DNA of 61,654 bases from Rubritepida sp. (GTDB taxonomy: Bacteria > Pseudomonadota > Alphaproteobacteria > Acetobacterales > Acetobacteraceae): NCBI GenBank assembly GCA_041639675.1, contig JBEQBS010000001.1:1-61654 (forward strand). Reading direction: 5' to 3'. Positions 11,429 to 59,818 of the stretch are shown one piece after another (position 1 is the first letter of the stretch; the number at the start of each line of letters is the position of its first letter). The notes under the pieces were generated by a model. It searched no databases. It saw only the letters and a program-made list of their open reading frames with translations, and was not told where the DNA came from. A program made the translations under genes and the position numbers.

Positions 11429-11439
<11 letters not shown>

Positions 11440-24619: not shown

Positions 24620-24634
24620 GTTGATTTTGTCAAC
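24620..24634. promoter_or_regulatory. Operator palindrome, copy 1
   Basis: GTTGATTTTGTCAAC upstream of pcaH. Confidence 0.7.
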
Positions 24635-24862
24635 GATCAACTCCGCGCCCAGGTCGGAAGCAGGCTGGCCGGACCGTTGGAGCCAGGAGTGATGCCTATG
24701 CCATCCCGCCGCGGATCGGGAACGTGTCGCCGCCTGTTGCGCACCCCGGGTGAATCGCCTGGAAAACGCGAGCGCGACGCTCAAGCCGACCCGCGCGAGG
24801 CGCACCCGTCGACGACCGGAAACCGCCTGGAATTCGGAACGCTTTCCGGACCAGGCATTTCG

Positions 24863-24877
24863 GTTGACTTTGTCAAC
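24863..24877. promoter_or_regulatory. Operator palindrome, copy 2
   Basis: GTTGACTTTGTCAAC upstream of the Bug gene at 24961. Confidence 0.75.
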
Positions 24878-24960
24878 TTACCTGTCTAGCGTCCCGGCCA
24901 GGAGTAGCCGGCGCCCTACCGAGCCTTGGTGGAGGCCGATCGTCTCGCGGAGGAAGCGTC

Positions 24961-25935
24961 ATGAAGTTGGCCCGTCGGGCAGTGCTGGGCGTCGTTGCCG
25001 CACCGCTGGTGTCTGCCCGCGCGCATGCGCAGGCGGCCGTCTATCCGGACCGTCCGGTGCGCGTCATCATCCCCTACGGGCCGGGCGGCACGAACGACAT
25101 CGTCGGCCGCATCCTCGCGCAGAAGCTCGGCGAGGCGATGAACCAGCCATTCGTGGTGGAGAACCGTCCCGGCGCCCAGGCGATCGTGGGAACAGAAGCG
25201 GCGGTCCGCGCCCGGCCAGACGGCTACACCCTCCTGATCGGCGCGAGCGGCCCCATCGTGTTCAACCCGGCGACGAGCGACCGGCTCAGCTACGATCCCC
25301 TCGCCGACCTCGTTCCCATCACGAAGCTCGTCACCTTCCCCTTGGTGCTGCTCGTCAACGCGACTTCCCCCCACCGCACGCTGGCGGACCTCATCACCTT
25401 CGCCAGGGCAAACCCTGGCAGGGTCAACTACGCGACCCCCGCAACAAGCTTCCAGCTCGCGACGGAATTGTTCAACCAGCGGGCCGGAACGCGCTTCCAG
25501 CACGTCTCCTACCGCGGCTCCTCCGACTGCGTCACGGCCCTCGTCCGCGACGAGGTGACGATGACGATGATTGATCCGGCACCTGCCATGGGGGGCATCG
25601 CCGCCGGGCAGATCCGCGCCCTCGCCGTCACGTCGCCCGAGCGTGTCGGCGCCTTGCCCCACGTGCCGACGATGAAGGAACTGGGCCTTCCGGATGTCGA
25701 GGCCGTCCTGTGGAGCGGGCTGTTCGCGCCGGCACGCACGCCGCCCGAGGTCGTGCAGCGCCTGAATGGTGCCGCGGTCAGCAGCCTGGCCATGCCCGAC
25801 GTGCGCGAGCGCCTCGCGCGTCTCCTGCTCGATCCCGCCCCGACGACCCCGGAGGCCTTCCGCGCGACGATCGCCCGAGAGATCGCCCTCTGGCGCGGCG
25901 TGGCGAGGGCGGCGAACGTCCAGCTGGAGCTGTAG
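24961..25935 (+). CDS. Bug/TctC substrate-binding protein
   Basis: ARRAVLG leader, YPDRPVRVIIPYGPGGTND, VENRPGA, PDGYTLL, YRGS. Confidence 0.93.
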   Translation: MKLARRAVLGVVAAPLVSARAHAQAAVYPDRPVRVIIPYGPGGTNDIVGRILAQKLGEAMNQPFVVENRPGAQAIVGTEAAVRARPDGYTLLIGASGPIVFNPATSDRLSYDPLADLVPITKLVTFPLVLLVNATSPHRTLADLITFARANPGRVNYATPATSFQLATELFNQRAGTRFQHVSYRGSSDCVTALVRDEVTMTMIDPAPAMGGIAAGQIRALAVTSPERVGALPHVPTMKELGLPDVEAVLWSGLFAPARTPPEVVQRLNGAAVSSLAMPDVRERLARLLLDPAPTTPEAFRATIAREIALWRGVARAANVQLEL

Positions 25936-26021
25936 CAAGGCCGCCGCGCTCCAGCGGCAGGCGTCAACGATCTGCGCGGGCACGCGCGGGTTCCCGGCAA
26001 GACACGGCAGCGAGGACAGGC

Positions 26022-26435
26022 ATGCTCCGGTACGGTTTCCTCCCTAGCGACTACAACCCGATGGTGCTGATGCTCGGGGACGTGGATGACCTCCGCCGCC
26101 TCGGCGCGACGCTCCGGGCGTTCGCCGCGGATCCTGGCGAGAAGGCCTTCGACGACCTCGACTTCGCGGTGCCGGATGCCGGCACCCGCATCATCATGCG
26201 TGTGGCACGGGAGCAGCGGGGCATGCGCCGCCCGGGCGCCGACGCACCCCTGGAGTGGCACCTATCCCCCGAGGCCGCGCGCGGTTTCGCGGACCAGATC
26301 GAAGTCCTGACCGCCCCCGACTGCAGGTCGGGATCCGAGATGCTTGGACCGGACGCGGTGAACGTCCGCGAAGGGATCCCCGTCAAGGTATCCCGCGGCG
26401 AGTTTGTGGACAGCTTTCTCATTACGGAGCGATAG
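26022..26435 (+). CDS. Hypothetical protein
   Basis: GAGGA RBS + ATG; protein-like composition (MLRYGFLPSDYNP...PVKVSRGEF); no family recognised. Confidence 0.65.
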   Translation: MLRYGFLPSDYNPMVLMLGDVDDLRRLGATLRAFAADPGEKAFDDLDFAVPDAGTRIIMRVAREQRGMRRPGADAPLEWHLSPEAARGFADQIEVLTAPDCRSGSEMLGPDAVNVREGIPVKVSRGEFVDSFLITER

Positions 26436-26670
26436 AGGCCTTGCATATGGCCTCGTACCCGCTTGACATGCGGATATGGGGTCTATAATCAATTGTTTTA
26501 TGATTTTGTTGTCCGATCTATGGACACATTGTCGGCGAAGGCGGTAGGATCGGGACACGCTTGCCGGTTTCGATCGCGGGATTTTGAGGCCCTCGGGCGC
26601 ACTCCCAGGGTCGGCACCCGATGAGTTCGACCAGGACGTCGTGGTTGCAGATGGAGAAGGGAGAGGCAGG

Positions 26671-28020
26671 ATGAGCGACGCAGCCAGCAATCAGTGGGTG
26701 GACACGAAGCGCGGCTTCATCAGCCGCGACATCTTCGTGGATCCACAGGTCTACAAGCTCGAGCTCGAGAAGCTGTTCACGCGCGCTTGGCTCTTCGTGG
26801 GACACGAGAGCCAGATCCCCAACAACGGCGACTTCTTCACGAGCCGGATGGGCGAGGAGTCGGTGATTCTCTGCCGCGACAAGAAGGGCGAGGTCCACGT
26901 CTTCCTGAACTCCTGCCGCCATCGCGGGATGAAGGTCTGCCGCTACGAGCAGGGCAACACGTCCCTCTTCACCTGTCCGTACCACAGCTGGACCTACGCC
27001 ACGGACGGCAAGCTTCAGGGCGTGCCGCAATACAAGACGCTGTACGATGGCGTGCTGGACCGCTCCGAGCACTCGCTCATCGAGGTGCCGCGAATGGTGA
27101 GGTACAAGGGCACCGTCTGGGCGTCGTGGGACGCCCAGGCACCCGACTTCTTCGAGTACCTGGGCGACGTGAAGCAGCACCTCGACCAGGCCCTCGATTG
27201 CCGGGACGGGCGTGAGGGCGGGTCGGAGGTGATCGGGGTCCACAAGTGGATCATTCCGGCGAACTGGAAGCTGGCCGCCGAGAATTTCCTCGGCGATACC
27301 TACCACAATCCCAGCCACCGCTCGGTGGATCTCATCGGCATCGGTCCGAGCGCGGCCGCCGGCGTGAAGGGCCGCCGCGACGACGAGCTGGCGAAGGCCA
27401 AGCATGTCTGGGTCAGCTTCATGCAGGGGCACGGCGTCCACAGCGCCATCGCGCCGGAGCAGAACGAGTACGTGAACTCCTTCCTCAGCGACCCGGAGAT
27501 CGAGGAGTACTTCCGGCACTGCTTCGAGGAACGGAAGCGCCGCCTGGGCGAGCAGGCGCGGCTCCTGCCCTTCACCGGCACGATCTTCCCGAACACCTCC
27601 TACCACGGCCGCCAGCCGCGCGGCCTCTGTGCCTGGCATCCCCACAGCCCCACGGAAACCGAGGCGTGGCGCTTCTTCCTCGTGGATGCCGACGCACCTG
27701 CGCAGGTGAAGGAGTACCTGCGGCACTACTACATGCGCTACTCCGGCCCGGCTGGCATGACGGAGCAGGACGACATGGAGAACTGGCTCTACGCGACGCG
27801 CGCCAGCATGGGCACCATCGCGCGGCGGCATCCGTTCAACTACCAGCAGTCCATGCACGTGTCGAAGATGAACGACCTGGTGCCCGGCAACGTCAGCCTC
27901 CAGCCGACGGAGGAAATGGCGCGCGGCTACTACCGTGCGTGGAGCCGTTACCTGAACGACAGCGACTGGGACGTCATCCTCGGCAGGGATGGCGGCGCCC
28001 AGGCAGCGGCGGCCGAGTAG
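26671..28020 (+). CDS. Rieske ring-hydroxylating dioxygenase alpha subunit
   Basis: Rieske CRHRG...CPYHSW; mononuclear Fe site NWKLAAENFLGDTYH..SH and EQDD.ENW. Confidence 0.96.
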   Translation: MSDAASNQWVDTKRGFISRDIFVDPQVYKLELEKLFTRAWLFVGHESQIPNNGDFFTSRMGEESVILCRDKKGEVHVFLNSCRHRGMKVCRYEQGNTSLFTCPYHSWTYATDGKLQGVPQYKTLYDGVLDRSEHSLIEVPRMVRYKGTVWASWDAQAPDFFEYLGDVKQHLDQALDCRDGREGGSEVIGVHKWIIPANWKLAAENFLGDTYHNPSHRSVDLIGIGPSAAAGVKGRRDDELAKAKHVWVSFMQGHGVHSAIAPEQNEYVNSFLSDPEIEEYFRHCFEERKRRLGEQARLLPFTGTIFPNTSYHGRQPRGLCAWHPHSPTETEAWRFFLVDADAPAQVKEYLRHYYMRYSGPAGMTEQDDMENWLYATRASMGTIARRHPFNYQQSMHVSKMNDLVPGNVSLQPTEEMARGYYRAWSRYLNDSDWDVILGRDGGAQAAAAE

Positions 28021-28819
28021 CCGCGCCGTGGTCGTCATCGTGACCGGCGGGACCTTCGGGATCGGCCGATCCATCACCCTCGCTCTTGCCGCGCGCGGCC
28101 ACCAAGTGGTCGCCTTCGGTCTCGAGGCGCGGCAGGTTTCGAGCATCGCCGAGAATGCGATCGCTTCCTTGCGCGCCGAACTGGCCGATCGCGGCCACGA
28201 CGCGGAGGTCATGGAGGCCGATGTCTCGCGGGCTGAGGACGTCCAGAGAGTGGTGGACGGCGCGCTCCACCGCTTCGGGCGGATCGACGCGCTGGTGAAC
28301 AACGCCGCCATCGGCCCCCTCGGCACGGTGCTCGACACGGACGAGGCTCTGTGGGACCGCATCATGGCGGTGAACGTGAAGGGGCCTTACCTCTGCGCGC
28401 GCGCTGTGCTCCCGCACATGATCCGGCAGGGTGGCGGCCGCATCGTAAACGTCGGCTCCGGCGCGGGGTACGGCAAGCCGAACATGGCCGCCTATGCCGC
28501 GAGCAAGGGTGCCCTGCACACGCTGACCTCCGCCCTCGCCTACGACCATTTTCACGACAGGATCTGCGTCAACACGGTGATCCCGGGCGGTGGCGGCATC
28601 GTCAGCGGCATGAGCCTCGGCCGCGTCGGCGGGGACACCAGCAGGTTCGGGCGGGGCGTGCCGGGCACGGCCGCCGGGCGGGTCGCGACCGGGGAGGACC
28701 TGGCCAAGGCGGTCGCCTTCCTCCTTTCCGACGACGCCGCGGTGATTTCCGGGACGGTGATCGACGTGGGCTGTTTCGCCCAGCAGGGCGGCCCGATTCC
28801 GCAGAAGCCGAACGCTTGA
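27989..28819 (+). CDS. SDR-family oxidoreductase (possible cis-dihydrodiol dehydrogenase)
   Basis: TGGTFGIG, LVNNA, NVGS, YAASK; start uncertain (ATG 27989 or GTG 28028). Confidence 0.88.
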   Translation: MAAPRQRRPSSRAVVVIVTGGTFGIGRSITLALAARGHQVVAFGLEARQVSSIAENAIASLRAELADRGHDAEVMEADVSRAEDVQRVVDGALHRFGRIDALVNNAAIGPLGTVLDTDEALWDRIMAVNVKGPYLCARAVLPHMIRQGGGRIVNVGSGAGYGKPNMAAYAASKGALHTLTSALAYDHFHDRICVNTVIPGGGGIVSGMSLGRVGGDTSRFGRGVPGTAAGRVATGEDLAKAVAFLLSDDAAVISGTVIDVGCFAQQGGPIPQKPNA

Positions 28820-28838
28820 ACGAAGGGGACGGAAGCGC

Positions 28839-29405
28839 ATGAGCGAGGTGATCACAGCCAGCCGCCCGAAGCGGAGCCTGGCCTGGTACGAGTTGAAGCA
28901 GGAGGTCGAGGAGTTCCTCTACGCCGAGGTGGACCTCCTCGACGAACGGCGCTTCGAGGACTGGCTGGACCTCCTCGCCGAGGACATCGTCTACTTCATG
29001 CCGATGCGGCGCAACGTGAAGTTCGGCCAGCATGCGGAGCGCGAGAACACGAAGCTCGGTGCCGGCATCAGCTGGTTCGACGAGGACAAGTGGACGCTCA
29101 CGAAGCGCGTCGAGCAGATCCTGACGGGCGTGCACTACGCCGAGGAACCGCTCTCGCGCGTTTGTCACATCATCAGCAACGTCCAGCTCCTCGAGGTGAC
29201 TCCCTCGGCCGAGGAGCCGCAGGAGGTGAAGGTGAAGAGCCGCTTCCTCGTCTACCAGAACCGCGTCGAGCACGAGACCTACACCCTCATCGGGAAGCGG
29301 ACGGATGTCCTGCGGCGGCACGGGGACAGCTGGCAGGTCGCCAAGCGCGAGATCATCCTGGACCAGAACGTCCTGCTGGCGAAGAACCTGACGATGTTCT
29401 TCTGA
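28839..29405 (+). CDS. Ring-hydroxylating dioxygenase beta subunit
   Basis: FLYAEVDLLDERRFEDWL, YFMP, AEEPLSR..SNV, R.D.LRR, KREIILDQNVLLAKNL. Confidence 0.95.
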   Translation: MSEVITASRPKRSLAWYELKQEVEEFLYAEVDLLDERRFEDWLDLLAEDIVYFMPMRRNVKFGQHAERENTKLGAGISWFDEDKWTLTKRVEQILTGVHYAEEPLSRVCHIISNVQLLEVTPSAEEPQEVKVKSRFLVYQNRVEHETYTLIGKRTDVLRRHGDSWQVAKREIILDQNVLLAKNLTMFF

Positions 29406-29426
29406 ACGGGCAAGCGAAGGAACTCG

Positions 29427-29621
29427 ATGAACATGGTGAACATCTTCGACCTGAAGCCGGGTGACTCCATTCGCCTCAAGAACGGCAGCGTGTGCGAGGT
29501 GGTGGAGAACATGGAGGACGGGATGTGGGTCATGGTGCGCTACACCTCGTGCCCCAGCGATCCCTCCTTGGTCGGTGAGGAAGAGCTCTGCCACGCCGAG
29601 CAGGTGGTCGAGACGGTGTGA
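29427..29621 (+). CDS. Small hypothetical protein (64 aa)
   Basis: AAGGA RBS, 21 bp after the beta subunit, codon style like its neighbours. Confidence 0.65.
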   Translation: MNMVNIFDLKPGDSIRLKNGSVCEVVENMEDGMWVMVRYTSCPSDPSLVGEEELCHAEQVVETV

Positions 29622-29823
29622 GATGCCGCGCAACGACGCGCCATGGAGAATGAGGGCGCGTCGGGCGAGCCGTTCGGCTCTGGCGGTCCGGGTTGAGTGA
29701 GGCACCGCAGGTCCTCGGCCGGCAGGAACGAGACAGCCGTCGGGAAGAACGTACATCCGGTGCCGAAAAGGCAGGCGCCGGATCCTGATCAGCATTTCGT
29801 CAACGCAAAGGGAGGGGACCGAC

Positions 29824-30798
29824 ATGCCGCAGCACAGATCCACCCGTCGCCAGGCCCTCGCCATCGGGCTCGGGCTGCCCCTGGGCGCCCAGGCGTCGGA
29901 AACTTGGCCCCAGCGCCCCATCCGGGTCATCGTCCCGTATCCGCCCGGGGGCCCGGCCGATATCATGGGACGCCTGGCTGCCCAGAAGATCGGCGAGCGG
30001 CTCAACGTCAACACCGTGGTGGAGAACCGCTCCGGAGCCAGCGGCACGGTGGGGGCGGAGGCGGTCCGGGCGGCGGCGCCGGACGGCCACATGCTCCTTG
30101 CGGCGCCGAGCGTGCATGTCATGGGCCGCCAGGTGCTGAGAAACGTCCCCTACGACCCCATCGGCGACTTCACGCCGGTCGCCCGGTATGGCCAGGGGCC
30201 GCTGCTGGTACTGGCCCATCCGTCGGTGCCCGGCAACACCATCGCCGAGGCGCTGCCCGCGCTGCGTGCCAGGCCCTCGAACTTCGCCTTCGGGCTCTCC
30301 GCATTCGGGGCCGCCAACCACCTGGCGGTTCTTGACTTCAACCGCCGGGCCGGACTGAACCTGCTGGTCGTTCCCTACCGCGGCTCGGCTCCCGCCCTGA
30401 CCGATCTCGTCGGTGGCCAGATCCAGCTCATGATCGATCCGATCATCGCGGCCCTGCCGCACGTTCGTGACGGCCGACTCAAGGCGCTGGCCGTCACGAG
30501 TTCACATCGCAGCCCCAGTGCTCCCGATGTTCCGACGGTGGCCGAGAGCGGCATGCCCGGTCTCGAGTTCGCGTCCTGGTATGGCGTATGGGGTCCGCGC
30601 GGCCTGCCGCCGGGAATCGCGCTGCGCGTGAACGAAGCCCTCAACGCGGGCATGCGCGAGCCCCAAGTCATCGAGCGACTCACGGCGATGGGTTTCGAGC
30701 CGGTGACGGAGAGCCCTGCCGAATTCGCCGCCTTCATCGAAAGCGATGTGCGTCGCAATGCCGAGCTCTTGCGCGAGGCACGCTTCCAGCCGGAGTGA
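29824..30798 (+). CDS. Bug/TctC substrate-binding protein
   Basis: TRRQAL leader, WPQRPIRVIVPYPPGGPAD, VENRSGA, PYRG, PDVPT. Confidence 0.93.
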   Translation: MPQHRSTRRQALAIGLGLPLGAQASETWPQRPIRVIVPYPPGGPADIMGRLAAQKIGERLNVNTVVENRSGASGTVGAEAVRAAAPDGHMLLAAPSVHVMGRQVLRNVPYDPIGDFTPVARYGQGPLLVLAHPSVPGNTIAEALPALRARPSNFAFGLSAFGAANHLAVLDFNRRAGLNLLVVPYRGSAPALTDLVGGQIQLMIDPIIAALPHVRDGRLKALAVTSSHRSPSAPDVPTVAESGMPGLEFASWYGVWGPRGLPPGIALRVNEALNAGMREPQVIERLTAMGFEPVTESPAEFAAFIESDVRRNAELLREARFQPE

Positions 30799-30831: not shown

Positions 30832-32271
30832 CTACAACGGTGCCTGGGTGACGAATTTCGTGACGAGATAGGGCTCGATGGCCTCCAATCCGCCTTCGGA
30901 CCCGTACCCGCTGTCCTTCACCCCGCCGAAAGGCACTTCGGGCAGCGCAATGCCAACATGGTTGATCGTCAGCATGCCCGCTTCGATCCGCGCGCCGAGG
31001 GCCTGCGCCGTGGTTGCGGCGCCCGTGAAAGCGTAGGCGGCGAGGCCGTAGGGCAGACGGTTGCTCTCGGCCACAGCCTCTTCCAGATTGGAGAACCGGT
31101 TCACGAGCGCCAGGGGGCCAAAGGGCTCCTCGTTCATCGCGCGGGCGGCAGGTGGCACCTCGGTCAGGATGGTGGGCTCGTGGAAGTAGCCCTTGTTGCC
31201 GATGCGGTTGCCGCCCGCCTGGAGCCTCGCACCGCGGCCGATGGCATCCTGCACGAGCGCTTCGATCGCCGGAACCCGCCGGTCATTGGCGAGAGGACCC
31301 ATCGTAACGCCGGGATCCATGCCGTTGCCGACGTTGAGCGCCTTCGCCGCCGCGGTGAAAGCCTCGACGAACTCGTCGAAGGAGCGCTCCTGGACGAGGA
31401 AGCGCGTCGGCGAGGCGCAGACCTGCCCGGCATTCCGGAACTTCGTGGCCGCAAGGATCCGCGCGGCCTTTCCGACATCCGCGTCGTCGAAGACGATGGC
31501 GGGCGCATGGCCGCCGAGTTCCATCGTCGCCCGTTTCATGTGCTGCCCCGCCATCGCGGCGAGCGTTTTCCCGACCGGCGTGGACCCCGTGAAGGTGATC
31601 TTCCGGATGACAGGGTGCGGGATGAGGTAGGACGAGATCTCGGCAGGCACCCCATAGACCAGACCGATCACGCCCGGGGGCAAGCCCGCATCCACGAAGC
31701 AGCGGACCAGTTCGGCGGGTGACGCGGGCGTCTCCTCCGGCGCCTTGACGATGATGGAGCAGCCCGTCGCCAGCGCCGCGCTGAGCTTTCGCACCACTTG
31801 GTTGATGGGGAAGTTCCACGGCGTGAAGGCCGCGACCGGCCCGACCGCCTCCTTCAAGACCAAGTTGTAGACACCCTCAGCCCGCGCCGGGATGACGCGC
31901 CCATACGCCCGACGGCCCTCCTCGGCCATCCAGTCGATGATGTCGCCAGCCGCCAGCACCTCCATCCGCGCCTCCCCGAGCGGCTTCCCTTGCTCCGCGG
32001 TTAGGATCGGAGCGATGGCGTCCGCTCGGGCCCGCAGGAGGTCGGCAGCCTTGCGCATGAGCTTGCAGCGGTCGAGGACGGACACCTTCCGCCAGGTCTC
32101 GAAGCCTTGCTGGGCTGCCTGGACTGCTTCGTCGAGATCAGTCCGGCCGGCGTGGGCGACGGTGCCGATGACCTCTTCCGTCGCGGGGTTGATGACCTCC
32201 AAGGTCCTGGCGGAGCGGGCGTCGCGCCATTCACCGTTGATGTGAAGCTGAACGTTTGGGTAGGCGCCCAT
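30832..32271 (-). CDS. NAD(P)-dependent aldehyde dehydrogenase (succinate-semialdehyde dehydrogenase-like)
   Basis: [36 protein letters not shown]. Confidence 0.94.
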
Positions 32272-32556
32272 CGGTGAAATCTCCATGGTTCTGTGTTGCG
32301 CGGGAAGGAACGGCGTCATCGCCCCAGCCTTGTCGGAATAGACGCCGGTCCCGCGGTCCATCTCGACGCGGCCACGCATCGGCTGCGCGGCACCGCAGCA
32401 GGCTGGGCAAGCGCTTCTCCGATCGCGGCTTCAGCGCCTCGACCACAGTCAACATCCTGTCGTTACGGCAGCACACCCGTCACGGGACGGGCGCCAAGCG
32501 AGTGGTCATCGGGCTTCGTTGGTCTCAATTCGTCGACACGCGCGACTAGACTTTCC

Positions 32557-32571
32557 GTTGACATTGTCAAT
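32557..32571. promoter_or_regulatory. Operator palindrome, copy 3
   Basis: GTTGACATTGTCAAT in the divergent ALDH/Bug gap. Confidence 0.7.
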
Positions 32572-32758: not shown

Positions 32759-32773
32759 GTTGATAACGTCAAC
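32759..32773. promoter_or_regulatory. Operator palindrome, copy 4
   Basis: GTTGATAACGTCAAC 30 bp upstream of the Bug gene at 32804. Confidence 0.7.
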
Positions 32774-34730: not shown

Positions 34731-34737
34731 ACTCAAC
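34723..34737. promoter_or_regulatory. Operator palindrome, copy 5
   Basis: GTTGACATACTCAAC overlapping the IclR start region, upstream of the divergent ferredoxin gene. Confidence 0.55.
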
Positions 34738-34914
34738 TTGATTTTCTCCTCGACCATGGACAATATGGCCTTTGAGAATGCTGTTCGTCCACCGGACAGG
34801 AACGCGTTGGCGTTGGGTCCGGTCGAACGAAGCCCCTGCCCACCAACCGCACGGGGCCCGAGTTGTCCTGGCGGGTCCAGGCGCTGGATGCGTGACCATG
34901 AGGGAGAGACCAAG

Positions 34915-41697: not shown

Positions 41698-41699
41698 GG

Positions 41700-45815: not shown

Positions 45816-45823
45816 AGGCGCCC

Positions 45824-51108: not shown

Positions 51109-51356
51109 GCGCAATGTCCTAATGCATTCAGGTCGTACGTGAAGTCTCTCGTCGTTACAGCGTTGCACCCAGCGCTGCTTGCACTACCGCCGCCGATGCG
51201 TGCCGGCAGCAAAAAATCCGAATCGGCTTCCATGCCCCAAACTTCGCACCTCCCGAAAAGTCATGCCACATAACCGCGCGGTCCGGGGAAAGCCGCACGG
51301 ACCGCGCCGGAGCGTTTCCGCGGACAAGAGACATGCTCCGAAGGAGGTAGTCCGCA

Positions 51357-52400
51357 TCACAGCAAGAACGCGGCGCCACTCTTATGGCACACCGACCTCA
51401 CTTCCTCGAAAAGAGCCGGGACCATCGGGATGCCTGCGCGACGCCGTTCCGCCGTGGTGTCGTGTTCGGGGTCGCCCGGGACGAGGACGGGAGCGGCGGG
51501 GTCGGCCGGCGGGTTGGATCGGAGACGGGCGAGCAAGGCGTTGAGGTCGTCGGCGAAAGCATCCCGGTCCCGGAAGGCCGCAGGATCTAGGACGAGGAAA
51601 AAGTGGCCGGTGCCGAGCGCGGCAAGGCCAGCCCCTGTGAGTGTAGCACAGAGGAGTTCGACCATAAGCGCCAAGCCGTAACCCTTATGCGCCCCCTGCT
51701 CCCGCGTTCCACCGAGGGGAGCGAGACGACGCGCCTCCGCCGCGCGGGCGGAGTCCCGCTCCGGCGCCCCATGCTCGTCGAGCGCCCATCCGGCAGGTAT
51801 CGGCTTACCGGCCCGACGGGCGATCGAAACCTTGCCGTAGGCGACGGTGGTCGTTGCCATGTCCAGCAGCACCGGGCGCATTGGATCCCGCGTTGGCGCC
51901 GCGAAAGCGATGGGGTTCGTGCCGAGCGCCGGTTCCGTGCCGCGAACCGGCACCATGAGATGGGAGGAGTTGGTGAGTGACAGGCAGAGCATCCCTTGCT
52001 CCGCCGCGCGGCGTGCGTACCAGCCTGCAGCCCCGTAGTGGTTGGAGTTGGTAACCCCGACGACGCCCAGGCCATGCTCCCGCGCCTTGCCGATCGCCAT
52101 GTCGGTAGCGAGGAGGCTCGGGACGTGCCCGATCGCCTTGCGGCCGTCGAGCAGACCGGCTGGGCCGTGATCCCGCAGCGTGGTCGGCACCGCGCGGGGG
52201 TCGAGGCGGCCTTCCTCGAAAAGTCTTTGATAGTGCGCCAGCATGCCGACACCGTGGGAGTCCACGCCGGAGAGGTCGGTTTCGACCATGATGGTGGCCG
52301 CCATGTCAGCGTCGCCAGGTGCCATGCCCCAGGCGATGAAAACCGATACGATCTGAGCATGCAGCCGTTCGGCGGAGATGAGGCGTATGTCGGCGGACAT
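51357..52400 (-). CDS. Ldh_2 family NAD(P)-dependent oxidoreductase (malate/L-lactate/ureidoglycolate dehydrogenase type 2)
   Basis: GVDSHG, NSNHYG, GTNPIAF, LDMATT, HKGYGL, VPGDPE. Confidence 0.92.
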   Translation of the reverse strand: MSADIRLISAERLHAQIVSVFIAWGMAPGDADMAATIMVETDLSGVDSHGVGMLAHYQRLFEEGRLDPRAVPTTLRDHGPAGLLDGRKAIGHVPSLLATDMAIGKAREHGLGVVGVTNSNHYGAAGWYARRAAEQGMLCLSLTNSSHLMVPVRGTEPALGTNPIAFAAPTRDPMRPVLLDMATTTVAYGKVSIARRAGKPIPAGWALDEHGAPERDSARAAEARRLAPLGGTREQGAHKGYGLALMVELLCATLTGAGLAALGTGHFFLVLDPAAFRDRDAFADDLNALLARLRSNPPADPAAPVLVPGDPEHDTTAERRRAGIPMVPALFEEVRSVCHKSGAAFLL

Positions 52401-52471
52401 GGCTTGCTCCGAATACGGGGGTGGAGGGGGGCGCCGTTCTCCGCAGTGCCTACGATGCGACGCGGGCGACG

Positions 52472-54136
52472 CTACCGGGCACCGCCGAGGCCGAGAACCT
52501 CGACCGCGTGCTTCGCGAGCTGCTTCTTCTGGATCTTCGAACTGGCGGTCATGCCGATGCTTTCGAAGCCCTCAACCACCTGGACGTACCGGGGAACCTT
52601 GAAACCGGCCATGTGCTCCCTGCTCCACGCGATGAGGGCCTCCGGTTCGCAGGATTGCCCCTCGTTGAGGATCACGAAGGCGCAGGGCACCTCCATCAGC
52701 CGCGGGTCGGGCACCGCCACCACCACGGCCTGCCGGATGGCGGGGTGACGGTGGAGGATGTCCTCCACCTCGGCCGGGGAGACGTTCTCGCCGCCGACGC
52801 GCACGATGTCCTTGGCACGCCCGGCGAATTCCAGCCGCCCCTCCTTGTCCAACCGTCCGAGGTCGCCGGTGGAGAGCCAGCCATCGGCGCTCAGGGCCTC
52901 GGCCGTTTCCTTCGGCTTGTCGAAATAGCCGCGCATCACGCTCCAGCCGCGCACCACGATCTCGCCTGTGCCGCCAGGCGGCAGGTCCTCGCCCGTCTCC
53001 AGATCGCGGATGCGGACCTCGATGCCGGGCTGAGGACGCATGCGGCCGCTGATCCGGACCTCCTCGTCCTCCCACCAGCAGGATTGCGAGATATTGGGCG
53101 ACGCCTCGGACAGGCCGTAACCGACCACGCACTCGCGCGCGCCCATCTCCTCGACGATGCGCCGGACGATGCTCGGGGAGGCCGCGGCCCAGGCGCCCCG
53201 CAACACCAACCTGCGGCGCGAGCGGTCGGGGTGGTTCAGCAGCATCAGCGCCATGGTGTCGTTGCCCGAGAAGTGCGTGCAACGCTCCTCTTCCATCAGG
53301 CGCAGCGCCTCTCCGGGCTCGAAGCGGTCCATCGAGACGAGGGTCGTCACATGCTGGATGCAGGACAACACCGAGAGGGTCGAGCCCGCGACGTGGAAGA
53401 ACGGTCGCGCGCTGTGGAAGCGGTCCGCGATGCGAAGCCCCATGCGCCCGCCGGAGAAGAAGGCGTTGGCGCACATGGAGCGATGCGTGAGCATCACCCC
53501 CTTGGGAAAGGAGGTGGTTCCGGACGTGTACTGGATCAGCAGGACGTCGTCCGGGGCGCAGCGCGGTGGCCCCTCGCTCCCCTTCCCCGCCGCCAGGAAC
53601 GCGTCCCAGGACCGTGCCGCGGCCGGCACGTCGCTGCCCAGCACGACGACCTCGCGCAGGTCTGGCAGCGCCGCGTCCGGCAGGGCGCGGTCCAGGCCGG
53701 GGGCGATCCCGCGCAGCATCGCCATGAAGTCGATCCGGAGGAAGCGATCCGCCATGAACAGGCGGCGCACGCGGGACTGGCGGAGGGAATAGGACAGCTC
53801 TTCGGCCTGGAACCGCGTGTTGACCGGGACAGTCACCGCGCCGACCGAGCCGAGTGCCAGGAAGATCGAAACCCATCGCGGCCCATTGCCCATCAGCAGG
53901 CCGACATGCTCGCCCCGCTCCACCCCGGCGGCGAGGAGCGCGGCGCGGATCGCCGCAACCTCACGCTCAAGCTCAGCGAACGTGATGCGGCCGGAGGGCG
54001 CAACCACCGCCTCGACCTCAGGAGCGATCGCCACGGCGCGCCGCAGGGCCTCAGCCGTGGTCAGGGGGCAGAGCCCCTCCAGCGCCAGGCCGCTCACGAC
54101 CCCGACGCTCCGAAGGTGCCCATCGTCTTGCGCCAC
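52472..54136 (-). CDS. Acyl-CoA synthetase (AMP-forming)
   Basis: YTSGTTSFPKG, YGLSE, TGDLG, GRAKD, GGENV.P.EVE, KIQK. Confidence 0.94.
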   Translation of the reverse strand: MAQDDGHLRSVGVVSGLALEGLCPLTTAEALRRAVAIAPEVEAVVAPSGRITFAELEREVAAIRAALLAAGVERGEHVGLLMGNGPRWVSIFLALGSVGAVTVPVNTRFQAEELSYSLRQSRVRRLFMADRFLRIDFMAMLRGIAPGLDRALPDAALPDLREVVVLGSDVPAAARSWDAFLAAGKGSEGPPRCAPDDVLLIQYTSGTTSFPKGVMLTHRSMCANAFFSGGRMGLRIADRFHSARPFFHVAGSTLSVLSCIQHVTTLVSMDRFEPGEALRLMEEERCTHFSGNDTMALMLLNHPDRSRRRLVLRGAWAAASPSIVRRIVEEMGARECVVGYGLSEASPNISQSCWWEDEEVRISGRMRPQPGIEVRIRDLETGEDLPPGGTGEIVVRGWSVMRGYFDKPKETAEALSADGWLSTGDLGRLDKEGRLEFAGRAKDIVRVGGENVSPAEVEDILHRHPAIRQAVVVAVPDPRLMEVPCAFVILNEGQSCEPEALIAWSREHMAGFKVPRYVQVVEGFESIGMTASSKIQKKQLAKHAVEVLGLGGAR

Positions 54137-54843
54137 TCGCCGCCGGCGAGGCTCTCCTCGATCGCCATCAACTCGGTCGCGAGCGCGCCGCGCGGGTCTC
54201 GCTCCAACCCCTCGTCCACACAGCGCTTGGCTAGGCGCATGGCGGCGGGGGGCGCACCGGTGATCGTCGCCGCGATCCCGGCCAGGGTCGCCTCAAGCGC
54301 CTCCGCATCCACCACCCGCGCCACCAGCCCGCCCTCCCGCGCCTCCTCGGCGGAGAGGGTGCGGCCGGTAAACATCATATCCTTCGCCAGCCGCTTGCCG
54401 AGGACGCGGGACAGGCGCTGGGTCGCGCCCACCGTCCCCCACAGCGCCTCGGGCGTGCGGAAGCTCGCACCCGGGGTGGCGACGACGAAGTCGCAGGCTG
54501 CGGCGATCTCGACACCCGAACCGACGGCCGGGCCCTCCACCACCGCCAGGCTTGGCATCGGCAGCCGCTCGAGCGCGTCGTAGGCCGCGAAGCCCTTCAG
54601 GCGGCGGGCGCGAACCTGGTCCTCGCTCATGCCCTTGCGCTCCTTCAGGTCGGCGCCGGCGCAGAACACCGGCCCGTTGGCGCGGATCACCACCAGCTTC
54701 GCCTCCAGGGACACGGCGCGGCGCGCGGCGGCGAGCAGCGCCTCGGCGAGGCCGGTATTCAGGGCATTGCGCGCCGCCGGGCGATTGAGGATCACAGTGG
54801 CGAGCCCATCCTCCCTCAGCTCGAACAGGACGTCGTCACTCAT
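54094..54843 (-). CDS. Enoyl-CoA hydratase/isomerase
   Basis: LNRPAARNAL, FCAGADLKE, GSGVEIA.ACD, TPE; both usual Glu positions present. Confidence 0.92.
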   Translation of the reverse strand: MSDDVLFELREDGLATVILNRPAARNALNTGLAEALLAAARRAVSLEAKLVVIRANGPVFCAGADLKERKGMSEDQVRARRLKGFAAYDALERLPMPSLAVVEGPAVGSGVEIAAACDFVVATPGASFRTPEALWGTVGATQRLSRVLGKRLAKDMMFTGRTLSAEEAREGGLVARVVDAEALEATLAGIAATITGAPPAAMRLAKRCVDEGLERDPRGALATELMAIEESLAGGEWRKTMGTFGASGS

Positions 54844-54854
54844 CGTCGTCTCGC

Positions 54855-56063
54855 TCACAGGGCACCACCTTCCCGCAGGGCGGCGATGCGCGCCGCGTCC
54901 ATTCCGAGGCGCTCGCGCAGCACCTCCTCCGTGTGCTCGCCCAGCAGCGGTGGGCGGCCGAAGCGCGGATCCTCCCATCCATCGAAGCGCAACGGCACGC
55001 GCAGGCCGGGGAACTCGCCGAGGGTCGGGTGCTCGAAGCGCTGGACCAGGCCGCGCGCGCGAACGTGCTCGTCCACCATGACCTCGTCGAGAGAGAAGAG
55101 CGGACCGGCCGGAACCCCGGCACCGTCCAGCGCCGCGAAGGCCTCGGCCCGGGTGAGCACCGCCATGGCCGCGGTGATGCCCCGCATCACCGCGTCCCGC
55201 TTCGCCACGCGACCGGCATTCGTCCCGAGCTCCGGGTCTGCCAGCAGGTCGTCCAGCCCAAGGGAGCGGCAGAGCGGCTCCCAGTGCTGATCCGAAACGG
55301 TGATGTGGAGCCACTTGCCATCGCGGCAGGAGAAGCTGGCCGACGGCACCCGCCCCGGATGCTCCGTGCCGAGCCGGGGCGGCACCTCGCCGAGCGCGAA
55401 CAGGCGGGCCGCGGCGATGGTCAGCTGCGCCACCTGCGCGTCGAACATCGAGACGTCGATATGGCCGCCCCTGCCGGTCTTTTCGCGGCCCTGCAGGGCG
55501 GAGAGGATGGCGATCGCCACCCAGAGTCCCGACGACAGGTCGGCCACCGGCAGGCCAGGCTTCACCGGCCCGCCCCCGCGCTCACCGGTCAGGCTCATCA
55601 GGCCGCTCATCGCCTGGAAGACGGTGTCGTAGCCCTTGCGCTTGGCGTAGGGTCCGGACTGGCCGAAGCCTGTGCAGGAGACATACACGAGCCGCGGGTT
55701 GAGGGGCGACAGGTCCGCGAAGCCGAGGCCGCGGCGCTGAAGCGTGCCGACCGGGAAGTTCTCCACCAGCACGTCCGCCTTGGCGGCCAGATCGCGGATG
55801 ACCGCGCGCCCCGCCTCGCTCCGCAGGTTCACCGTGATGGAGCGCTTGGAGCGGTTGCAGGCCATGTAGTAGCCGCTCACCTCCGCCCCGTCCGGCTCTC
55901 CATCCCGCTTCGCAAAGGGTTCGAAGCCCCGCGTCTCGTCGCCGCTGCCGGGCTGCTCCACCTTGATGACCTCGGCGCCCATCTCCGCCAGGATCATCGT
56001 GGCGAAGGGGCAGGCCAGCACCCGCGAGAGGTCGAGGATGACGAGGCCTTCAAGCGGTCTCAT
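54855..56063 (-). CDS. CoA-transferase family III (CaiB/BaiF)
   Basis: PLEGL.ILDLSRVLA.P, GAEVIKVE, NRSKRS, DVLVENF, GFGQ.GPY..R.GYD, PP.LGEHT. Confidence 0.94.
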   Translation of the reverse strand: MRPLEGLVILDLSRVLACPFATMILAEMGAEVIKVEQPGSGDETRGFEPFAKRDGEPDGAEVSGYYMACNRSKRSITVNLRSEAGRAVIRDLAAKADVLVENFPVGTLQRRGLGFADLSPLNPRLVYVSCTGFGQSGPYAKRKGYDTVFQAMSGLMSLTGERGGGPVKPGLPVADLSSGLWVAIAILSALQGREKTGRGGHIDVSMFDAQVAQLTIAAARLFALGEVPPRLGTEHPGRVPSASFSCRDGKWLHITVSDQHWEPLCRSLGLDDLLADPELGTNAGRVAKRDAVMRGITAAMAVLTRAEAFAALDGAGVPAGPLFSLDEVMVDEHVRARGLVQRFEHPTLGEFPGLRVPLRFDGWEDPRFGRPPLLGEHTEEVLRERLGMDAARIAALREGGAL

Positions 56064-56734
56064 GCGGGCCGGGTCCTTGCATCGGAGATGAGCTCCTTCA
56101 AGCGCAGCAGCGCGGAAGGCGGCAAGGCCGCAGCCGCCTCCGCCCGCGCCGCCGCCTCGTCGAGGACACGCTCCGCCGGTACGACCCGTTCCGCCAGGCC
56201 GAGCGACAGGGCCTCGGCGGGGGTGATGTCGCGACCAGTCGCCAGGAGGTCGAAGACGCGGCGCGGCGGCAGGTGGCGCAGCAGCACGGGCACCATCAGT
56301 TCCGGCAGCATGCCATGTCGCGCCTCCGGAAAGCCGAGGACGGCCGTGTCCGCGAGAATCGTCACGTCGCAGGAGAGCGCAAGTGCCGCGCCGGCACCGA
56401 GAGCCGCGCCTTGCACCGCCGCCGCCACCGGCTTGCCAAGGCGGGAGGGCGCCGCCATCAGGGTGGGAGTCAGGGCGCGCCGTGCGGCCATGGCCGCCGG
56501 GTCCTCCCGCAGCGCCCTCATCTCCCCGAGGTCGGCTCCGGCACAGAATCCTGGTCCGTTCGCCGCCAGCACGATGGCGGCGACGCCATCCTCCGCCGAC
56601 GCACGCTCCAGCGCCGCCAGGAGAGCCTCGATCATGGCTCGGTTGAGCGCGTTGCGCTTCTCCGGCCGGTTCAAGCGGATGACGCGGACGCTGCCGCGAT
56701 CCTCCTCGATCACCAGGGTGTCGGTGCGACTCAT
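56060..56734 (-). CDS. Enoyl-CoA hydratase/isomerase (short)
   Basis: LNRPEKRNAL, FCAGADL, GAG..L.LSCD, FPE. Confidence 0.88.
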   Translation of the reverse strand: MSRTDTLVIEEDRGSVRVIRLNRPEKRNALNRAMIEALLAALERASAEDGVAAIVLAANGPGFCAGADLGEMRALREDPAAMAARRALTPTLMAAPSRLGKPVAAAVQGAALGAGAALALSCDVTILADTAVLGFPEARHGMLPELMVPVLLRHLPPRRVFDLLATGRDITPAEALSLGLAERVVPAERVLDEAAARAEAAAALPPSALLRLKELISDARTRPA

Positions 56735-57687
56735 CCGGCTCCGCCCGCCAGACGCAGCCGCGCGGCCTCGGCTTCGGCGACCAGCTGCTCCACGAGCGCG
56801 CCGGCCGGCAGGATGTCATTGATCAGCCCAACCGTCTGCCCTGCCTCCACCTTGCCGCGCTCGACGTCGCCATCCAGCGCCGCCTGCTTCAGCGTCCGGC
56901 TCATGTACAGCTCGGCGAGCACTTCCTTCGCATGCCCCGCGCGCTCCGCCGCATCCACTTCGGCGGTGAAGAGGTTGCGGAGCTGGCGCACCGGCAATCC
57001 CCCCCTGCCGACGAGTGTGGTGTCCGACAACGCGGCGCGCCGCACCGCTTCCTTGTATGCGGGATGCACGCTCGCCTCGTCCGTCATCAGGAAGCGCGTG
57101 CCGAGCTGCGCACCCTCCGCACCAAGGGCGAACATGGCCGCGACCCCCGCTCCGTCCGCCACGCCGCCGGCGCCGATGACCGGCGCCCTCACCCCGGCCT
57201 TCACCACCGCGCGCACCAGCACCATCGCTGAGACCTCGTCCGGTGCCGGATGGCCGCCTGCGTCGCCGCCGACCACGATCAATCCGTCCACCCCGGAGGC
57301 ATCGGCCTTCTGCGCGTGGGCGGGCGAGGCCACCACGTGCAACCATTTCGCCCCATAGGCGCGGAAACGCGGCAACGCCTTCGGCCCGCCCTGCGACGCG
57401 ATGATGACCGGCACCTGCTCCGCCTCCGCGATGTCGAGGAACTCGGCGGAGCGCTTGTTGTATAGCGGCACGTTGAGGGCGAAGGGATTCGGGGTCCCCG
57501 CCTTCACGGCGCGGATCGCGTCGAGCAGGTCATTCGTGCGCATAGGACCGGCGGCGATCACCCCCAGGGCGCCTGCACGCGACACGGCCAGCGCCAACGG
57601 CGCGGACGAGGACGCCCAACTCATGCCGCCCTGGATGATGGGATGGCGAATGCCGAGCAACGCGGGCAGCCGGGAGGGAAAACCCAT
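56731..57687 (-). CDS. Nitronate monooxygenase / FabK-like FMN enzyme
   Basis: PIIQGGM, AGALG, AGGH, AGGVADG, GTRF, AGQ. Confidence 0.9.
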   Translation of the reverse strand: MGFPSRLPALLGIRHPIIQGGMSWASSSAPLALAVSRAGALGVIAAGPMRTNDLLDAIRAVKAGTPNPFALNVPLYNKRSAEFLDIAEAEQVPVIIASQGGPKALPRFRAYGAKWLHVVASPAHAQKADASGVDGLIVVGGDAGGHPAPDEVSAMVLVRAVVKAGVRAPVIGAGGVADGAGVAAMFALGAEGAQLGTRFLMTDEASVHPAYKEAVRRAALSDTTLVGRGGLPVRQLRNLFTAEVDAAERAGHAKEVLAELYMSRTLKQAALDGDVERGKVEAGQTVGLINDILPAGALVEQLVAEAEAARLRLAGGAG

Positions 57688-57742
57688 GGTCGCACTCACG
57701 CCGTCTCGTCCTTCAGTCGTCATGACGACAAAACCGCATATC

Positions 57743-57757
57743 GTTGACATTGTCAAC
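57743..57757. promoter_or_regulatory. Operator palindrome, copy 6
   Basis: GTTGACATTGTCAAC upstream of the NMO-led acyl-CoA operon. Confidence 0.75.
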
Positions 57758-57885
57758 GACCATCGCATGCGCCAATGGCGGGCAGCATCGCGCGGTCCAA
57801 ACCGGACGGCGGCGCCTGGCCGCGGAAAGTCGGGGGCAGCGGTCGCAGCTGGTCCTGAGTGCTCGGTCCGGCGTCATGGCGGACC

Positions 57886-58701
57886 CTATGCCCCCTCCGC
57901 CACCCAGGCAGCCGGGCGCTTCGCCTTGAAGGCCGCGATGCCCTCCGCAGCCTCCGCTCCCGTCGAGCAGCGACTGAAGGCACGCGCACCGGCCTCGGCG
58001 TATCCCGGCGGAGCCACATCGCCCATCGCGGCGAGAAGGGCCTTCGTCTCGGACAGCGCGCCGGGCGCGCCGGCGCGGATGTCGCAAAGGATCGCCTCAA
58101 GCATCGCATCCAGCGCGGAGGCGTCGCGGGCCACCTCATGCACCAGCCCAGCCCGCGCGGCAGCCGCGGCGTCCACCGCCGCCCCTTGCAGGACCAGGCG
58201 CGCCGCGGCGCTGCGGCCCATCCGGCGCACCAGCCACGGCAGGATCTGCGCCGCCACGAGGCCGCGCCGCGCTTCGGGCGCCGCGAAGCGGGCGTCTTCC
58301 GCGGCAATGGCGATGTCCGCGGCGCAGACGAGGCCGAGTCCGCCCGCGAAGGCGGAGCCCTCGACCCGTGCGATCACCACCTGCGGCAATGCGGCGATGG
58401 CGGCAAAACGCTCGCCGGTGCGGCGATTTCGCTCCAGCGCGGCGGCGAGTCGCGCCTCCGGCGTCGAACCGGCACCGCCGGCCTCGTCCAGGTCCAGCCC
58501 TGCGCAGAAATGTCCGCCCGCCCCGGTTATCACCAGGACGCGGGCCGTGCGGTCGTCCCGCAACTCGGCGAGCAAGGCGTCGAAACGTTCCGCCAGTTCG
58601 CGGCTCATAGCATTGCGGCGTGACGGGCGGTTGAGCGTCGCGCGCACGACGCCGCCTTCGCGCACGACGAGAAGCGGCGGCTCGCCAACGAGCTCAGGCA
58701 T
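57886..58701 (-). CDS. Enoyl-CoA hydratase, methylglutaconyl-CoA hydratase-like
   Basis: LNRPSRRNAM, FCAGLDL, GGLGLVCAAD, PEARRGL, EAAEGIAAF..KR.A.W. Confidence 0.88.
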   Translation of the reverse strand: MPELVGEPPLLVVREGGVVRATLNRPSRRNAMSRELAERFDALLAELRDDRTARVLVITGAGGHFCAGLDLDEAGGAGSTPEARLAAALERNRRTGERFAAIAALPQVVIARVEGSAFAGGLGLVCAADIAIAAEDARFAAPEARRGLVAAQILPWLVRRMGRSAAARLVLQGAAVDAAAAARAGLVHEVARDASALDAMLEAILCDIRAGAPGALSETKALLAAMGDVAPPGYAEAGARAFSRCSTGAEAAEGIAAFKAKRPAAWVAEGA

Positions 58702-59623
58702 GCGTGACCTCCCCGACACGGATGGCGCGCGAGTAGAGGGCGCGTCCGAGCAGCGCCTCGGCCTCCCGCCCGGCGGCGCGCAAGCGACCGAGGTCCAGCC
58801 CTGTGTCCACGCCCATCGCTTCGAACAACGTGGCCAGATCCTCGGTGCATACGTTGCCGGTGAAGCCCTCGCCGTAGGCGATGCCGGAGGGGTGCCCCCC
58901 TGTGCCGCCGAGGGCGGTGTCGAAGTGCCGCAGCCCCGCTTCAAGCGCCGCGACGCAGTTGGCGATGCCCGTTCCGCGGCTGTCGTGGAAGTGGGCGATG
59001 AAGGTCGCGTCGGGCAACGCCTCCTTCAGCATCGTCACCAGGGACCGCACGCGCGGCGGAGTCGCGCTGCCGATGGTGTCCCCGATGGAGATGCGGGTGA
59101 CGCCGACGGACACGAAGCGGCGCGCATCATCCAGAACCCGTTCCGGCGGTGTCGGGCCGTCGAACGGGCAGTCGAAGGCGACGGAGATGGAGCCGACGAG
59201 GGTGAAATCCCGTCCGGCCAGCCCCGCCATCTCCGCCACGTTCGCCCACTGCTCCTCGCGTGTGCGCCGGAGGTTCTTCCGCGTGTGCCCCTCCGAGGCG
59301 GAGACAAGGAAACTGATCTCCTCCGGCCCGCGGCCTCCTGCCCGCGCCGCCTGCGCGCGACCCACGGCGGCCGGGTTGGGGCAGGTGGCCTTGAACAGCA
59401 CGCCTGGGCGCGGACGCGTGCCGGCGAGCACCGCTTCAGCATCGGCGAACTGCGGGATGTACTTCGGGTGGGCGAAGGACGTGATCTCGATGCGTCGGAA
59501 GCCGCAATCGGCGATCCGATCGAGCATCGCCACCTTCGTTCCTGCCGGAAGGACCACAGGCTCGTGCTGCAAACCGTCGCGGCAGAAGCACTCGGAAAAG
59601 ATCACGTCGGGCACATCGGTCAC
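58694..59623 (-). CDS. HMG-CoA lyase / citramalyl-CoA lyase-like DRE-TIM enzyme
   Basis: RDGLQHE, IEITSF.HPK.IPQ.AD, SASE.H..KN, DTIG, HFHD, GNVCTEDL. Confidence 0.9.
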   Translation of the reverse strand: MTDVPDVIFSECFCRDGLQHEPVVLPAGTKVAMLDRIADCGFRRIEITSFAHPKYIPQFADAEAVLAGTRPRPGVLFKATCPNPAAVGRAQAARAGGRGPEEISFLVSASEGHTRKNLRRTREEQWANVAEMAGLAGRDFTLVGSISVAFDCPFDGPTPPERVLDDARRFVSVGVTRISIGDTIGSATPPRVRSLVTMLKEALPDATFIAHFHDSRGTGIANCVAALEAGLRHFDTALGGTGGHPSGIAYGEGFTGNVCTEDLATLFEAMGVDTGLDLGRLRAAGREAEALLGRALYSRAIRVGEVTHA

Positions 59624-59803
59624 GGCACGAGAATCTCCAGGATGGCGATCGCGGAACACGGGGCTGGCTGGCAGGTCTGCGCGCTATCGTATGCGCGGAA
59701 GGCGCCTGGTCCTGCGCGCCGCCCAGTCGGCGGCCCCCTGCCCGAAGTCGGATTCATGGGATCCGCCTCCTCCCCCACTGCTCTGGCGCGATCGCCGATA
59801 TTA

Positions 59804-59818
59804 GTTGACTATGTAAAC
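59804..59818. promoter_or_regulatory. Operator palindrome, copy 7
   Basis: GTTGACTATGTAAAC in the divergent lyase/MarR gap. Confidence 0.65.

Follow-up and report, generated by a model that had tools for sequence, protein, structure and literature searches.

Two catabolic gene clusters of Rubritepida sp., an alphaproteobacterium of the Acetobacteraceae, lie some 16 kb apart on one contig, and copies of the same 15-bp palindrome, GTTGAC-N3-GTCAAC, occur in both. Are the two clusters one regulon and one pathway, and which regulator owns the palindrome? The stretch that we analyzed, hereafter called the window, is 61,654 bp long (GenBank assembly GCA_041639675.1, contig JBEQBS010000001.1, positions 1 to 61,654) and is the entire contig C1 of a 3.3-Mb genome with 72.5% G+C, available as 441 contigs and 93% complete. 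An initial annotation of the window had assigned both clusters, one encoding a Rieske dioxygenase and a PcaHG-like ring-cleavage dioxygenase and the other acyl-coenzyme A (acyl-CoA) enzymes, to a single MarR regulon that would combine side-chain CoA processing with ring attack. Our analysis makes it quite probable that GTTGAY-N3-RTCAAC is the operator of the MarR-family regulator encoded at 59918..60478 (plus strand), the predicted binder, and that the genes bearing it make up the lower tier of a single aromatic-catabolic supercluster, split in the window by a 16-kb block of defense genes and insertion sequence (IS) elements.

The window holds seven copies of GTTGAC-N3-GTCAAC with at most one mismatch, exactly at the coordinates first reported; shuffled sequences hold 0.04 on average, and none of 100 shuffles reaches seven. 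Six copies are intergenic: two between the divergent pcaH-like and TctC2 genes (24620..24634, 91 bp from pcaH, and 24863..24877, 83 bp from TctC2), two in the divergent spacer between an aldehyde dehydrogenase gene and TctC4 (32557..32571, 269 bp from the dehydrogenase ATG, and 32759..32773, 30 bp from TctC4 at 32804-33787), one before the FabK-like reductase gene (57743..57757, 55 bp), and one between marR and the HMG-CoA lyase-like gene (59804..59818, at 99 and 180 bp, respectively). The seventh (34723..34737) covers the likely start codon of iclR (ATG 34733, minus strand), and the earlier description of all copies as lying in or at promoters, the last one in front of marR, was correct. Positions 1-18000 and 36471-52471, which take in the host flank and the defense modules, contain no match at this threshold, again as described; allowing two mismatches adds a single match to the window, at 36330 within the reductase gene. 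Over the whole genome there are nine matches with at most one mismatch, namely, the seven window copies and two others at C36:8071 and C301:2619, which rules out the site of a global regulator.

A weight matrix built on 72 sites of other genomes places the window copies at ranks 1-7 of the host genome, with scores from 37.3 (59804, the top-scoring site genome-wide) to 23.3 (32759, the weakest of the seven) and 21.0 for the next-best position, although two points temper this result: the training sites had been selected on this same core and on A+T content, so that the rank of the core is to some extent circular, and part of what the flank score measures is intergenic DNA. When the flanks and spacer were scored alone, six copies ranked 1-6 among the 93 matches with at most two mismatches, and the 32759 copy ranked 12. 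Scans for sigma-70 promoters and terminators gave results no better than chance.

The palindrome tracks the regulator. The window protein hits Pfam PF01047 and PF12802, and its predicted model (pLDDT 89) is matched by Foldseek to winged-helix MarR proteins. Orthologues at 45% identity or more occur in 13 genomes of a 300-genome sample of the family; on plasmids, no MarR match was found at 1e-20. We counted core matches upstream of marR in sampled family genomes, named genomes, and metagenome loci, starting from 94 rows, from which duplicates, rows with less than 150 bp upstream, and four rows at 40 to 45% identity were removed. Of the 58 loci whose MarR shares at least 45% identity, 29 have a match within 260 bp upstream of marR, compared with none of the 19 loci below 40%; in many of the loci lacking it, marR comes last in an operon. 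A matrix derived from the seven window sites only, whose background is 0.019 per 10 kb, found a site within 5 kb upstream in 30/38 orthologue loci versus 1/5 distant loci; counts across related genomes are not independent. The winged-helix fold, a conserved palindrome at the regulator's own transcription unit, and sites confined to the cluster are all found, as in a MarR-family local regulon, and autoregulation through such a palindrome is an ordinary kind of regulation.

The two clusters are one unit that was later split in the window, because its halves abut in three Roseomonas genomes in the window's own order. Roseomonas populi (G403), Roseomonas sp. KE2513 (G404), R. chloroacetimidivorans (G405), and R. 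vinacea (G406) each carry pcaH (84 to 89% identity to the window), Rieske alpha (89 to 95%), and MarR on a single contig. The shared order runs from a TPP enzyme, (a FAD oxidase), TctC, pcaG, pcaH, an MLE-family enzyme, TctC, and orf137 through Rieske alpha, a short-chain dehydrogenase (SDR), beta, orf64, TctC, iclR, ferredoxin, and reductase; a convergent arm follows, with CoA ligase, crotonase, CaiB, crotonase, the FabK-like gene, and a TctC pair, and the right end consists of crotonase, HMG-CoA lyase-like, SucD/SucC-like, and marR genes. The stops of the reductase and CoA ligase genes are 6 bp apart in R. vinacea, 69 bp in R. populi, and 105 bp in strain KE2513, the three relatives with contiguous clusters that the initial annotation had recommended seeking, versus 16,001 bp in the window. 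In R. chloroacetimidivorans, the reductase and ligase lie 5.9 kb apart around a different insert that has its own operator copy. The four Roseomonas clusters hold 6, 7, 9, and 3 operator sites above threshold, their right-arm sites having been in the matrix training set and their left-arm sites not. Counterparts exist in all four relatives for the copies at TctC2-orf137 (also in L133), at the FabK-like gene (there a TctC-FabK operon), and between the HMG-CoA lyase-like gene and marR; the pcaH-side copy has counterparts in G403, G404, and G405 and heads an MLE-pcaH operon in G406; the TctC4 copy has them in G404 and G405, with none in G403; and no separate counterpart of the aldehyde dehydrogenase copy was found in the relatives. 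Adjacent pcaHG, MarR, and CoA genes also occur in G123, G240, and G074 and in the distant loci L155, L161, L165, and L167 (62 to 69% G+C), most with two operators between pcaH and marR. In three of the distant loci (L161, L165, and L167), marR is separated from the CoA genes by genes for a TauD-like dioxygenase, a class II aldolase, and a ketopantoate-reductase-like protein.

The interruption (36471..52471) measures 16.0 kb up to the CoA ligase gene and 14.9 kb up to the Ldh_2 gene and comprises a NACHT gene, an istB fragment, a flavin monooxygenase gene with a LysR gene, an IS5, the Mokosh genes mkoB and mkoA, and the Ldh_2 dehydrogenase gene. Not all of it is an insert, as had been assumed. 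The flavin monooxygenase (82 to 84%) and LysR genes adjoin marR in three Roseomonas, and in R. vinacea the monooxygenase gene is found inside the Rieske operon; by this comparison the pair appears native to the cluster, and the foreign parts are the NACHT gene, the istB fragment, the IS5, Mokosh, and Ldh_2.

What might the unit degrade? The left arm begins with an operon (18090..24528, minus strand) of pcaH-like, pcaG-like, TctC, FAD-linked oxidase, TPP enzyme, and alpha/beta hydrolase genes, the first five in the order of three Roseomonas. The PcaH-like chain keeps Tyr408, Tyr447, His460, His462, and Arg457, the intradiol iron ligands and active-site Arg in what we take to be the PcaH numbering. 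It scores 237 bits versus a PcaH cut-off of 296 and belongs to a clade separate from four canonical-type sequences (support 100/99), two of which (L233 and L236) were labeled from sequence alone. At the position of Trp449 it has Val, presumably a type II signature, and Tyr occurs there in the host's own pcaH, part of a second pcaHG on contig C27, and in three clade members; the N. resinovorum match is a pobA/pcaB-linked copy with Trp. The clade is present in 10 of the 13 sampled MarR genomes versus 18 of the 287 others, where a different CaiB/crotonase/hydratase set often accompanies it; here, too, kin do not count as independent. At L136, L198, L200, L202, L204, L208, and L211, the same divergent pcaHG clade comes with a second module, mostly with a GntR-like gene; this module, also present on the Paracoccus plasmid L096, includes a two-subunit Fe-S hydratase and GST-like, CMD-like, CaiB, crotonase, and amidohydrolase genes.

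The CoA arm consists of an operon for a FabK-like reductase, a crotonase, a CaiB CoA-transferase, a second crotonase, and an acyl-CoA ligase (52472..57687, minus strand; 80 to 83% DNA identity to the four Roseomonas) and of the HMG-CoA lyase-like and AtuE-like hydratase genes (57886..59623, minus strand). The crotonase beside the lyase has isohexenylglutaconyl-CoA hydratase as its best solved relative (E 4.7e-51), the lyase is nearest to HMG-CoA lyases, and the "nitronate monooxygenase" is nearest to FabK enoyl reductases. Because such a hydratase/lyase pair needs a beta-branched dicarboxylyl-CoA, as a 3-substituted muconate would give, we tentatively place the CoA arm after ring cleavage. The MLE-family enzyme of the relatives has its closest matches among unnamed isomerases and dehydratases and might just as well act as a racemase or a dehydratase.

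The initial annotation favored the reverse order, in which ring attack would follow once the CoA arm had shortened an aryl side chain, and MarR would sense an aryl-CoA in the manner of CouR or FerC; we place this behind the order just given and consider it rather unlikely. In its favor, the cluster encodes an acyl-CoA ligase and three crotonases, similar enzyme types serve in a retro-aldol route for 3-arylbutyrates, and R. chloroacetimidivorans has two tannase/feruloyl-esterase family genes at operator copies (G405:C30:26320 and 35271), a hint of plant phenolic esters. However, the window and the 28 open reading frames (ORFs) called in the compact R. vinacea cluster showed neither an acyl-CoA dehydrogenase nor a thiolase, and no Fer/Cou-type lyase is apparent, the crotonase scoring 103 bits versus a cut-off of 276 for p-hydroxycinnamoyl-CoA hydratase/lyase. 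Moreover, G242, G284, and G210 have the CoA arm, yet the pcaH clade was not found in these genomes. Nor is the window MarR close to any solved CoA-sensing regulator: its nearest solved relatives (2fa5, 3nrv, and 3cdh) are all uncharacterized, no entry named CouR or FerC is among its solved-structure matches, and the Rhodococcus jostii CouR box, cATTGA-N5-TCAATg in the accessible portion of its description, differs in spacing (PMC4737184).

The Rieske genes are the part of the proposed MarR regulon that did not stand as claimed: pcaHG-like and acyl-CoA genes share the operator, and the Rieske genes have an IclR-type box instead. The Rieske alpha, SDR, beta, conserved 64-aa, and TctC genes (26671..30798, plus strand; 89 to 95% identity to the four Roseomonas) are preceded by TGTCCG-N5-TGGACA at 26510..26526, and a second box (34782..34798, kept in all four Roseomonas) lies in the gap between iclR (33951..34733, minus strand) and the 2Fe-2S ferredoxin and ferredoxin reductase genes (34915..36470, plus strand). 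Boxes resembling TGTCCG-N5-CGGACA occur only at these two places in the host genome. They fit the group 1 IclR consensus GTNCG-N5-6-CGNAC, as given in the accessible part of PMC8222616, and co-occur with IclR. The box precedes Rieske alpha in 4/4 Roseomonas, lies between iclR and Rieske alpha in G240, G123, G303, and L133, and is found in a one-mismatch form before the alpha gene of a Variovorax locus (L228). The matrix scan found no MarR operator at either promoter, the best scores being 6.9 for Rieske alpha (26436-26670) and -17.8 for the ferredoxin gene. Because both promoters lack the operator and have the IclR-type box, the Rieske and ferredoxin/reductase operons are likely not direct MarR targets, and control would be two-tiered, through IclR. 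In 3/4 Roseomonas, the iclR start is likewise overlapped by a two-mismatch variant of the operator with an identical 5' flank, which suggests a MarR-over-IclR cascade.

A flat regulon, in which the Rieske genes too would answer directly to MarR by read-through from the TctC2 promoter and IclR would be incidental, is improbable. The TctC2 and 137-aa genes (24961..26435, plus strand) are co-directional with Rieske alpha in the window and all four Roseomonas, and no intrinsic terminator was found between the three. Yet the IclR-type box precedes Rieske alpha in every examined locus with IclR, iclR itself is inserted between orf137 and Rieske alpha in L133, and G240, G123, and G303 have the Rieske module without a MarR site within ~20 kb despite a MarR elsewhere in each genome. 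A MarR orthologue is present in just 2 of the 24 family genomes that have Rieske alpha; the Rieske form with the window's SDR occurs in 3 of 401 genomes, all three with MarR.

The closest relatives of the Rieske alpha are 3-phenylpropionate/biphenyl dioxygenases (E 5e-91); it is distant from TphA2 (E 9e-22) and scores below the HcaE cut-off (366 versus 830). Phthalate 3,4-dioxygenase was rejected as its identity, the 48 to 50% plasmid matches carrying no pht annotation. The products of the 137-aa (26022-26435) and 64-aa (29427-29621) genes match no Pfam family and accompany this alpha family across many genomes, whether MarR is present or not; they are possible accessory proteins, and a protein atlas returned hypothetical clusters only, an Imm32 match (0.92, low recognition) being no more than a lead. 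Five loci (L066, L068, L072, L074, and L079) have two tandem Rieske alpha genes (~70% identity to that of the window) with one beta gene or none in view. The left arm also has an aldehyde dehydrogenase gene (30832..32287, minus strand).

Several observations weigh against assigning the palindrome to MarR and against a complete unit in the window. Eight of the 38 orthologue loci lack a site within 5 kb upstream, three of them having one just past 5 kb at the operon head and one having it downstream, and 4 of 22 Rieske loci without MarR in view still contain a site (4-31 kb scanned). The iclR-start site scores just 15-17 in three relatives and is absent in R. vinacea. Relatives have an MLE-family enzyme, a SucCD-like pair, and two TctC genes that are missing from the window, whose copy of the cluster may be incomplete; no MLE homologue was found in the host genome as assembled (93% complete), and loss of the MLE gene, the SucCD-like pair, and the TctC pair would account for the window's close pairs of sites. 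Finally, two congeners without MarR (G063 and G183) have tandem copies of the same 15-bp core close to a TetR gene, so the core is not unique to this MarR subfamily. At L041:9926-10047 and L042:9941-10062, from same-genus genomes without MarR, four spaced GTTGAC-N3-GTCAAC-like copies occupy a divergent promoter near TetR.

These TetR-linked copies, together with a LysR-type T-N11-A and a -35-like TTGAC contained in the palindrome, are what can be said for ownership by IclR, by the LysR encoded at 43913, or by a TetR or global factor, which we regard as very improbable. The palindrome is not genome-wide; it persists in R. vinacea, whose cluster has no LysR, and in L022, L026, L090, L092, and L154-L167, where no close IclR, LysR, or Rieske homologue was seen; and the host's match to that TetR is weak and partial (E 1.7e-4). 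IclR as the binder of the 15-mer was ruled out, having a separate box of its own.

An assembly artifact, with sequences joined wrongly across the IS5, is hardly credible as the origin of the arrangement: contigs of run X1 break at the IS5 and the genome is in 441 pieces, but depth is flat at ~16-19 on both sides, single contigs bridge both insert ends, one low-depth contig of run X2 links the IS5 flanks (44900 to 45754), and the gene order agrees with four relatives (X1 is possibly the source of the window and hence not independent, and most joints, with ~20 letters on one side, were disregarded). The X2 contig joins the flanks of the IS5 (44900-45754) as TA..TA, which suggests that an IS5-free allele exists.

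The clusters likely ride on a tRNA-Glu island, since the 3' end of tRNA-Glu(CTC) is duplicated beside an integrase gene (2975-4858, by Pfam): a 48-bp att-like core at 3332..3379 (minus strand), 100% identical to C17:14005-14052 in the tRNA region C17:13977-14052, forms the left edge. With a length of at least 58 kb, the island probably extends from there beyond the end of the contig and as far as C17. Three sampled genomes of the same genus yielded no MarR, Rieske alpha, or pcaH-like gene. The island also contains a type I restriction-modification system, a PDC-M48B-like gene, an excisionase-like gene at 17135, and a type I Mokosh system with adjacent mkoA and mkoB (PADLOC MkoA 1e-227, MkoB 9e-84). 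A 1394-aa NACHT protein (37513-41697) resembles EruA (860.8 bits; cut-off 1000) and has no Pfam or PADLOC match. The window presents a catabolic cluster on a tRNA-Glu island that gathers defense genes at one neutral spot between convergent operons.

Returning to MarR as the owner of the palindrome, our working model is as follows. MarR would repress its own gene, the CoA operons, pcaHG, the TctC receptor genes, and probably iclR, and the Rieske alpha/SDR/beta and ferredoxin/reductase operons would be controlled by IclR from a box of its own. With less confidence, we propose that the Rieske system and SDR would make a 4-substituted catechol, which the sequence-divergent PcaHG would open between the hydroxyls; the CoA arm would activate the resulting beta-branched dicarboxylate, reduce it (FabK-like) and hydrate it (AtuE-like), and the HMG-CoA lyase-like enzyme would cleave the product, yielding acetyl-CoA and an oxo-acid. 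Either a ring-cleavage acid or its CoA ester would serve as inducer. In its entirety, this would be an undescribed aerobic ring-fission route of Roseomonas-like Acetobacteraceae and distant proteobacteria, in which a wide-pocket PcaHG clade acts on a bulky 4-substituted catechol, the 3-substituted muconate is dismantled as its CoA ester by the three enzymes just named, and a MarR-over-IclR cascade governs the whole, a combination that we regard as possible but somewhat unlikely.

Ortho cleavage of 4-substituted catechols ends in quaternary lactones, and 3-substituted muconates are a dead end for the beta-ketoadipate enzymes. If the CoA arm acts after ring cleavage, the cluster would provide a new route round the quaternary-lactone dead end, relevant to lignin and pollutant degradation, and its MarR would be a new biosensor. 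The operator, used as a tag, groups ~28 genes into one testable unit, which four named Roseomonas genomes carry. In the open-access literature, subscription journals and RegPrecise or other regulon databases being out of reach, neither operator nor cluster is described. The cluster is apparently an undescribed, conserved variant of ortho cleavage, and its operator is real and of an ordinary kind.

How does this unit compare with known systems? IclR-controlled Rieske operons with TctC receptors are the tph-type layout, which the window resembles in an iclR divergent from alpha/beta, dehydrogenase, and reductase genes, in its TctC, and in a group 1 IclR box, but the window alpha is far from TphA2, its nearest matches being 3-phenylpropionate/biphenyl dioxygenases. 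PcaV and CouR share with the window regulator the MarR winged-helix fold and palindromes at several catabolic promoters, including the regulator's own; PcaV is a weak match (E 6e-5), and, as far as the accessible parts of the sources go, the operators differ in sequence and spacing from GTTGAY-N3-RTCAAC, that of Streptomyces PcaV being TCAG-N4-CTGA (PMC3616709, PMC4737184), and the BhbR2 box, in the part of its source available, differs as well. The protocatechuate branch of the beta-ketoadipate pathway likewise uses a two-chain intradiol dioxygenase with the same kept ligands; unlike it, the cluster has a CoA arm and, in relatives, the MLE-family enzyme, with no PcaB, PcaC, PcaIJ, or PcaF among the window genes or the 28 ORFs called in the R. 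vinacea cluster, and its hydrolase reaches 64 of 256 bits for PcaD. The 4-sulfocatechol pathway, with its type II protocatechuate 3,4-dioxygenase (pcaH2G2, pcaB2, 4SLH; PMC5632844), is alike in having a second, mobile PcaHG, but it was rejected for its missing partners: pcaB2, sulfomuconolactone hydrolase, and maleylacetate reductase are all absent from the window, and a hydrolase next to one relative reaches just 120 of 500 bits. The closest parallel to the CoA arm is offered by AtuE and LiuE of acyclic terpene and leucine catabolism, which similarly pair a hydratase with an HMG-CoA lyase-type enzyme for a beta-branched dicarboxylyl-CoA; unlike those pathways, the window has neither a biotin carboxylase nor an acyl-CoA dehydrogenase, and couples the pair to a ring-cleavage dioxygenase, a FabK-like reductase, and CaiB.

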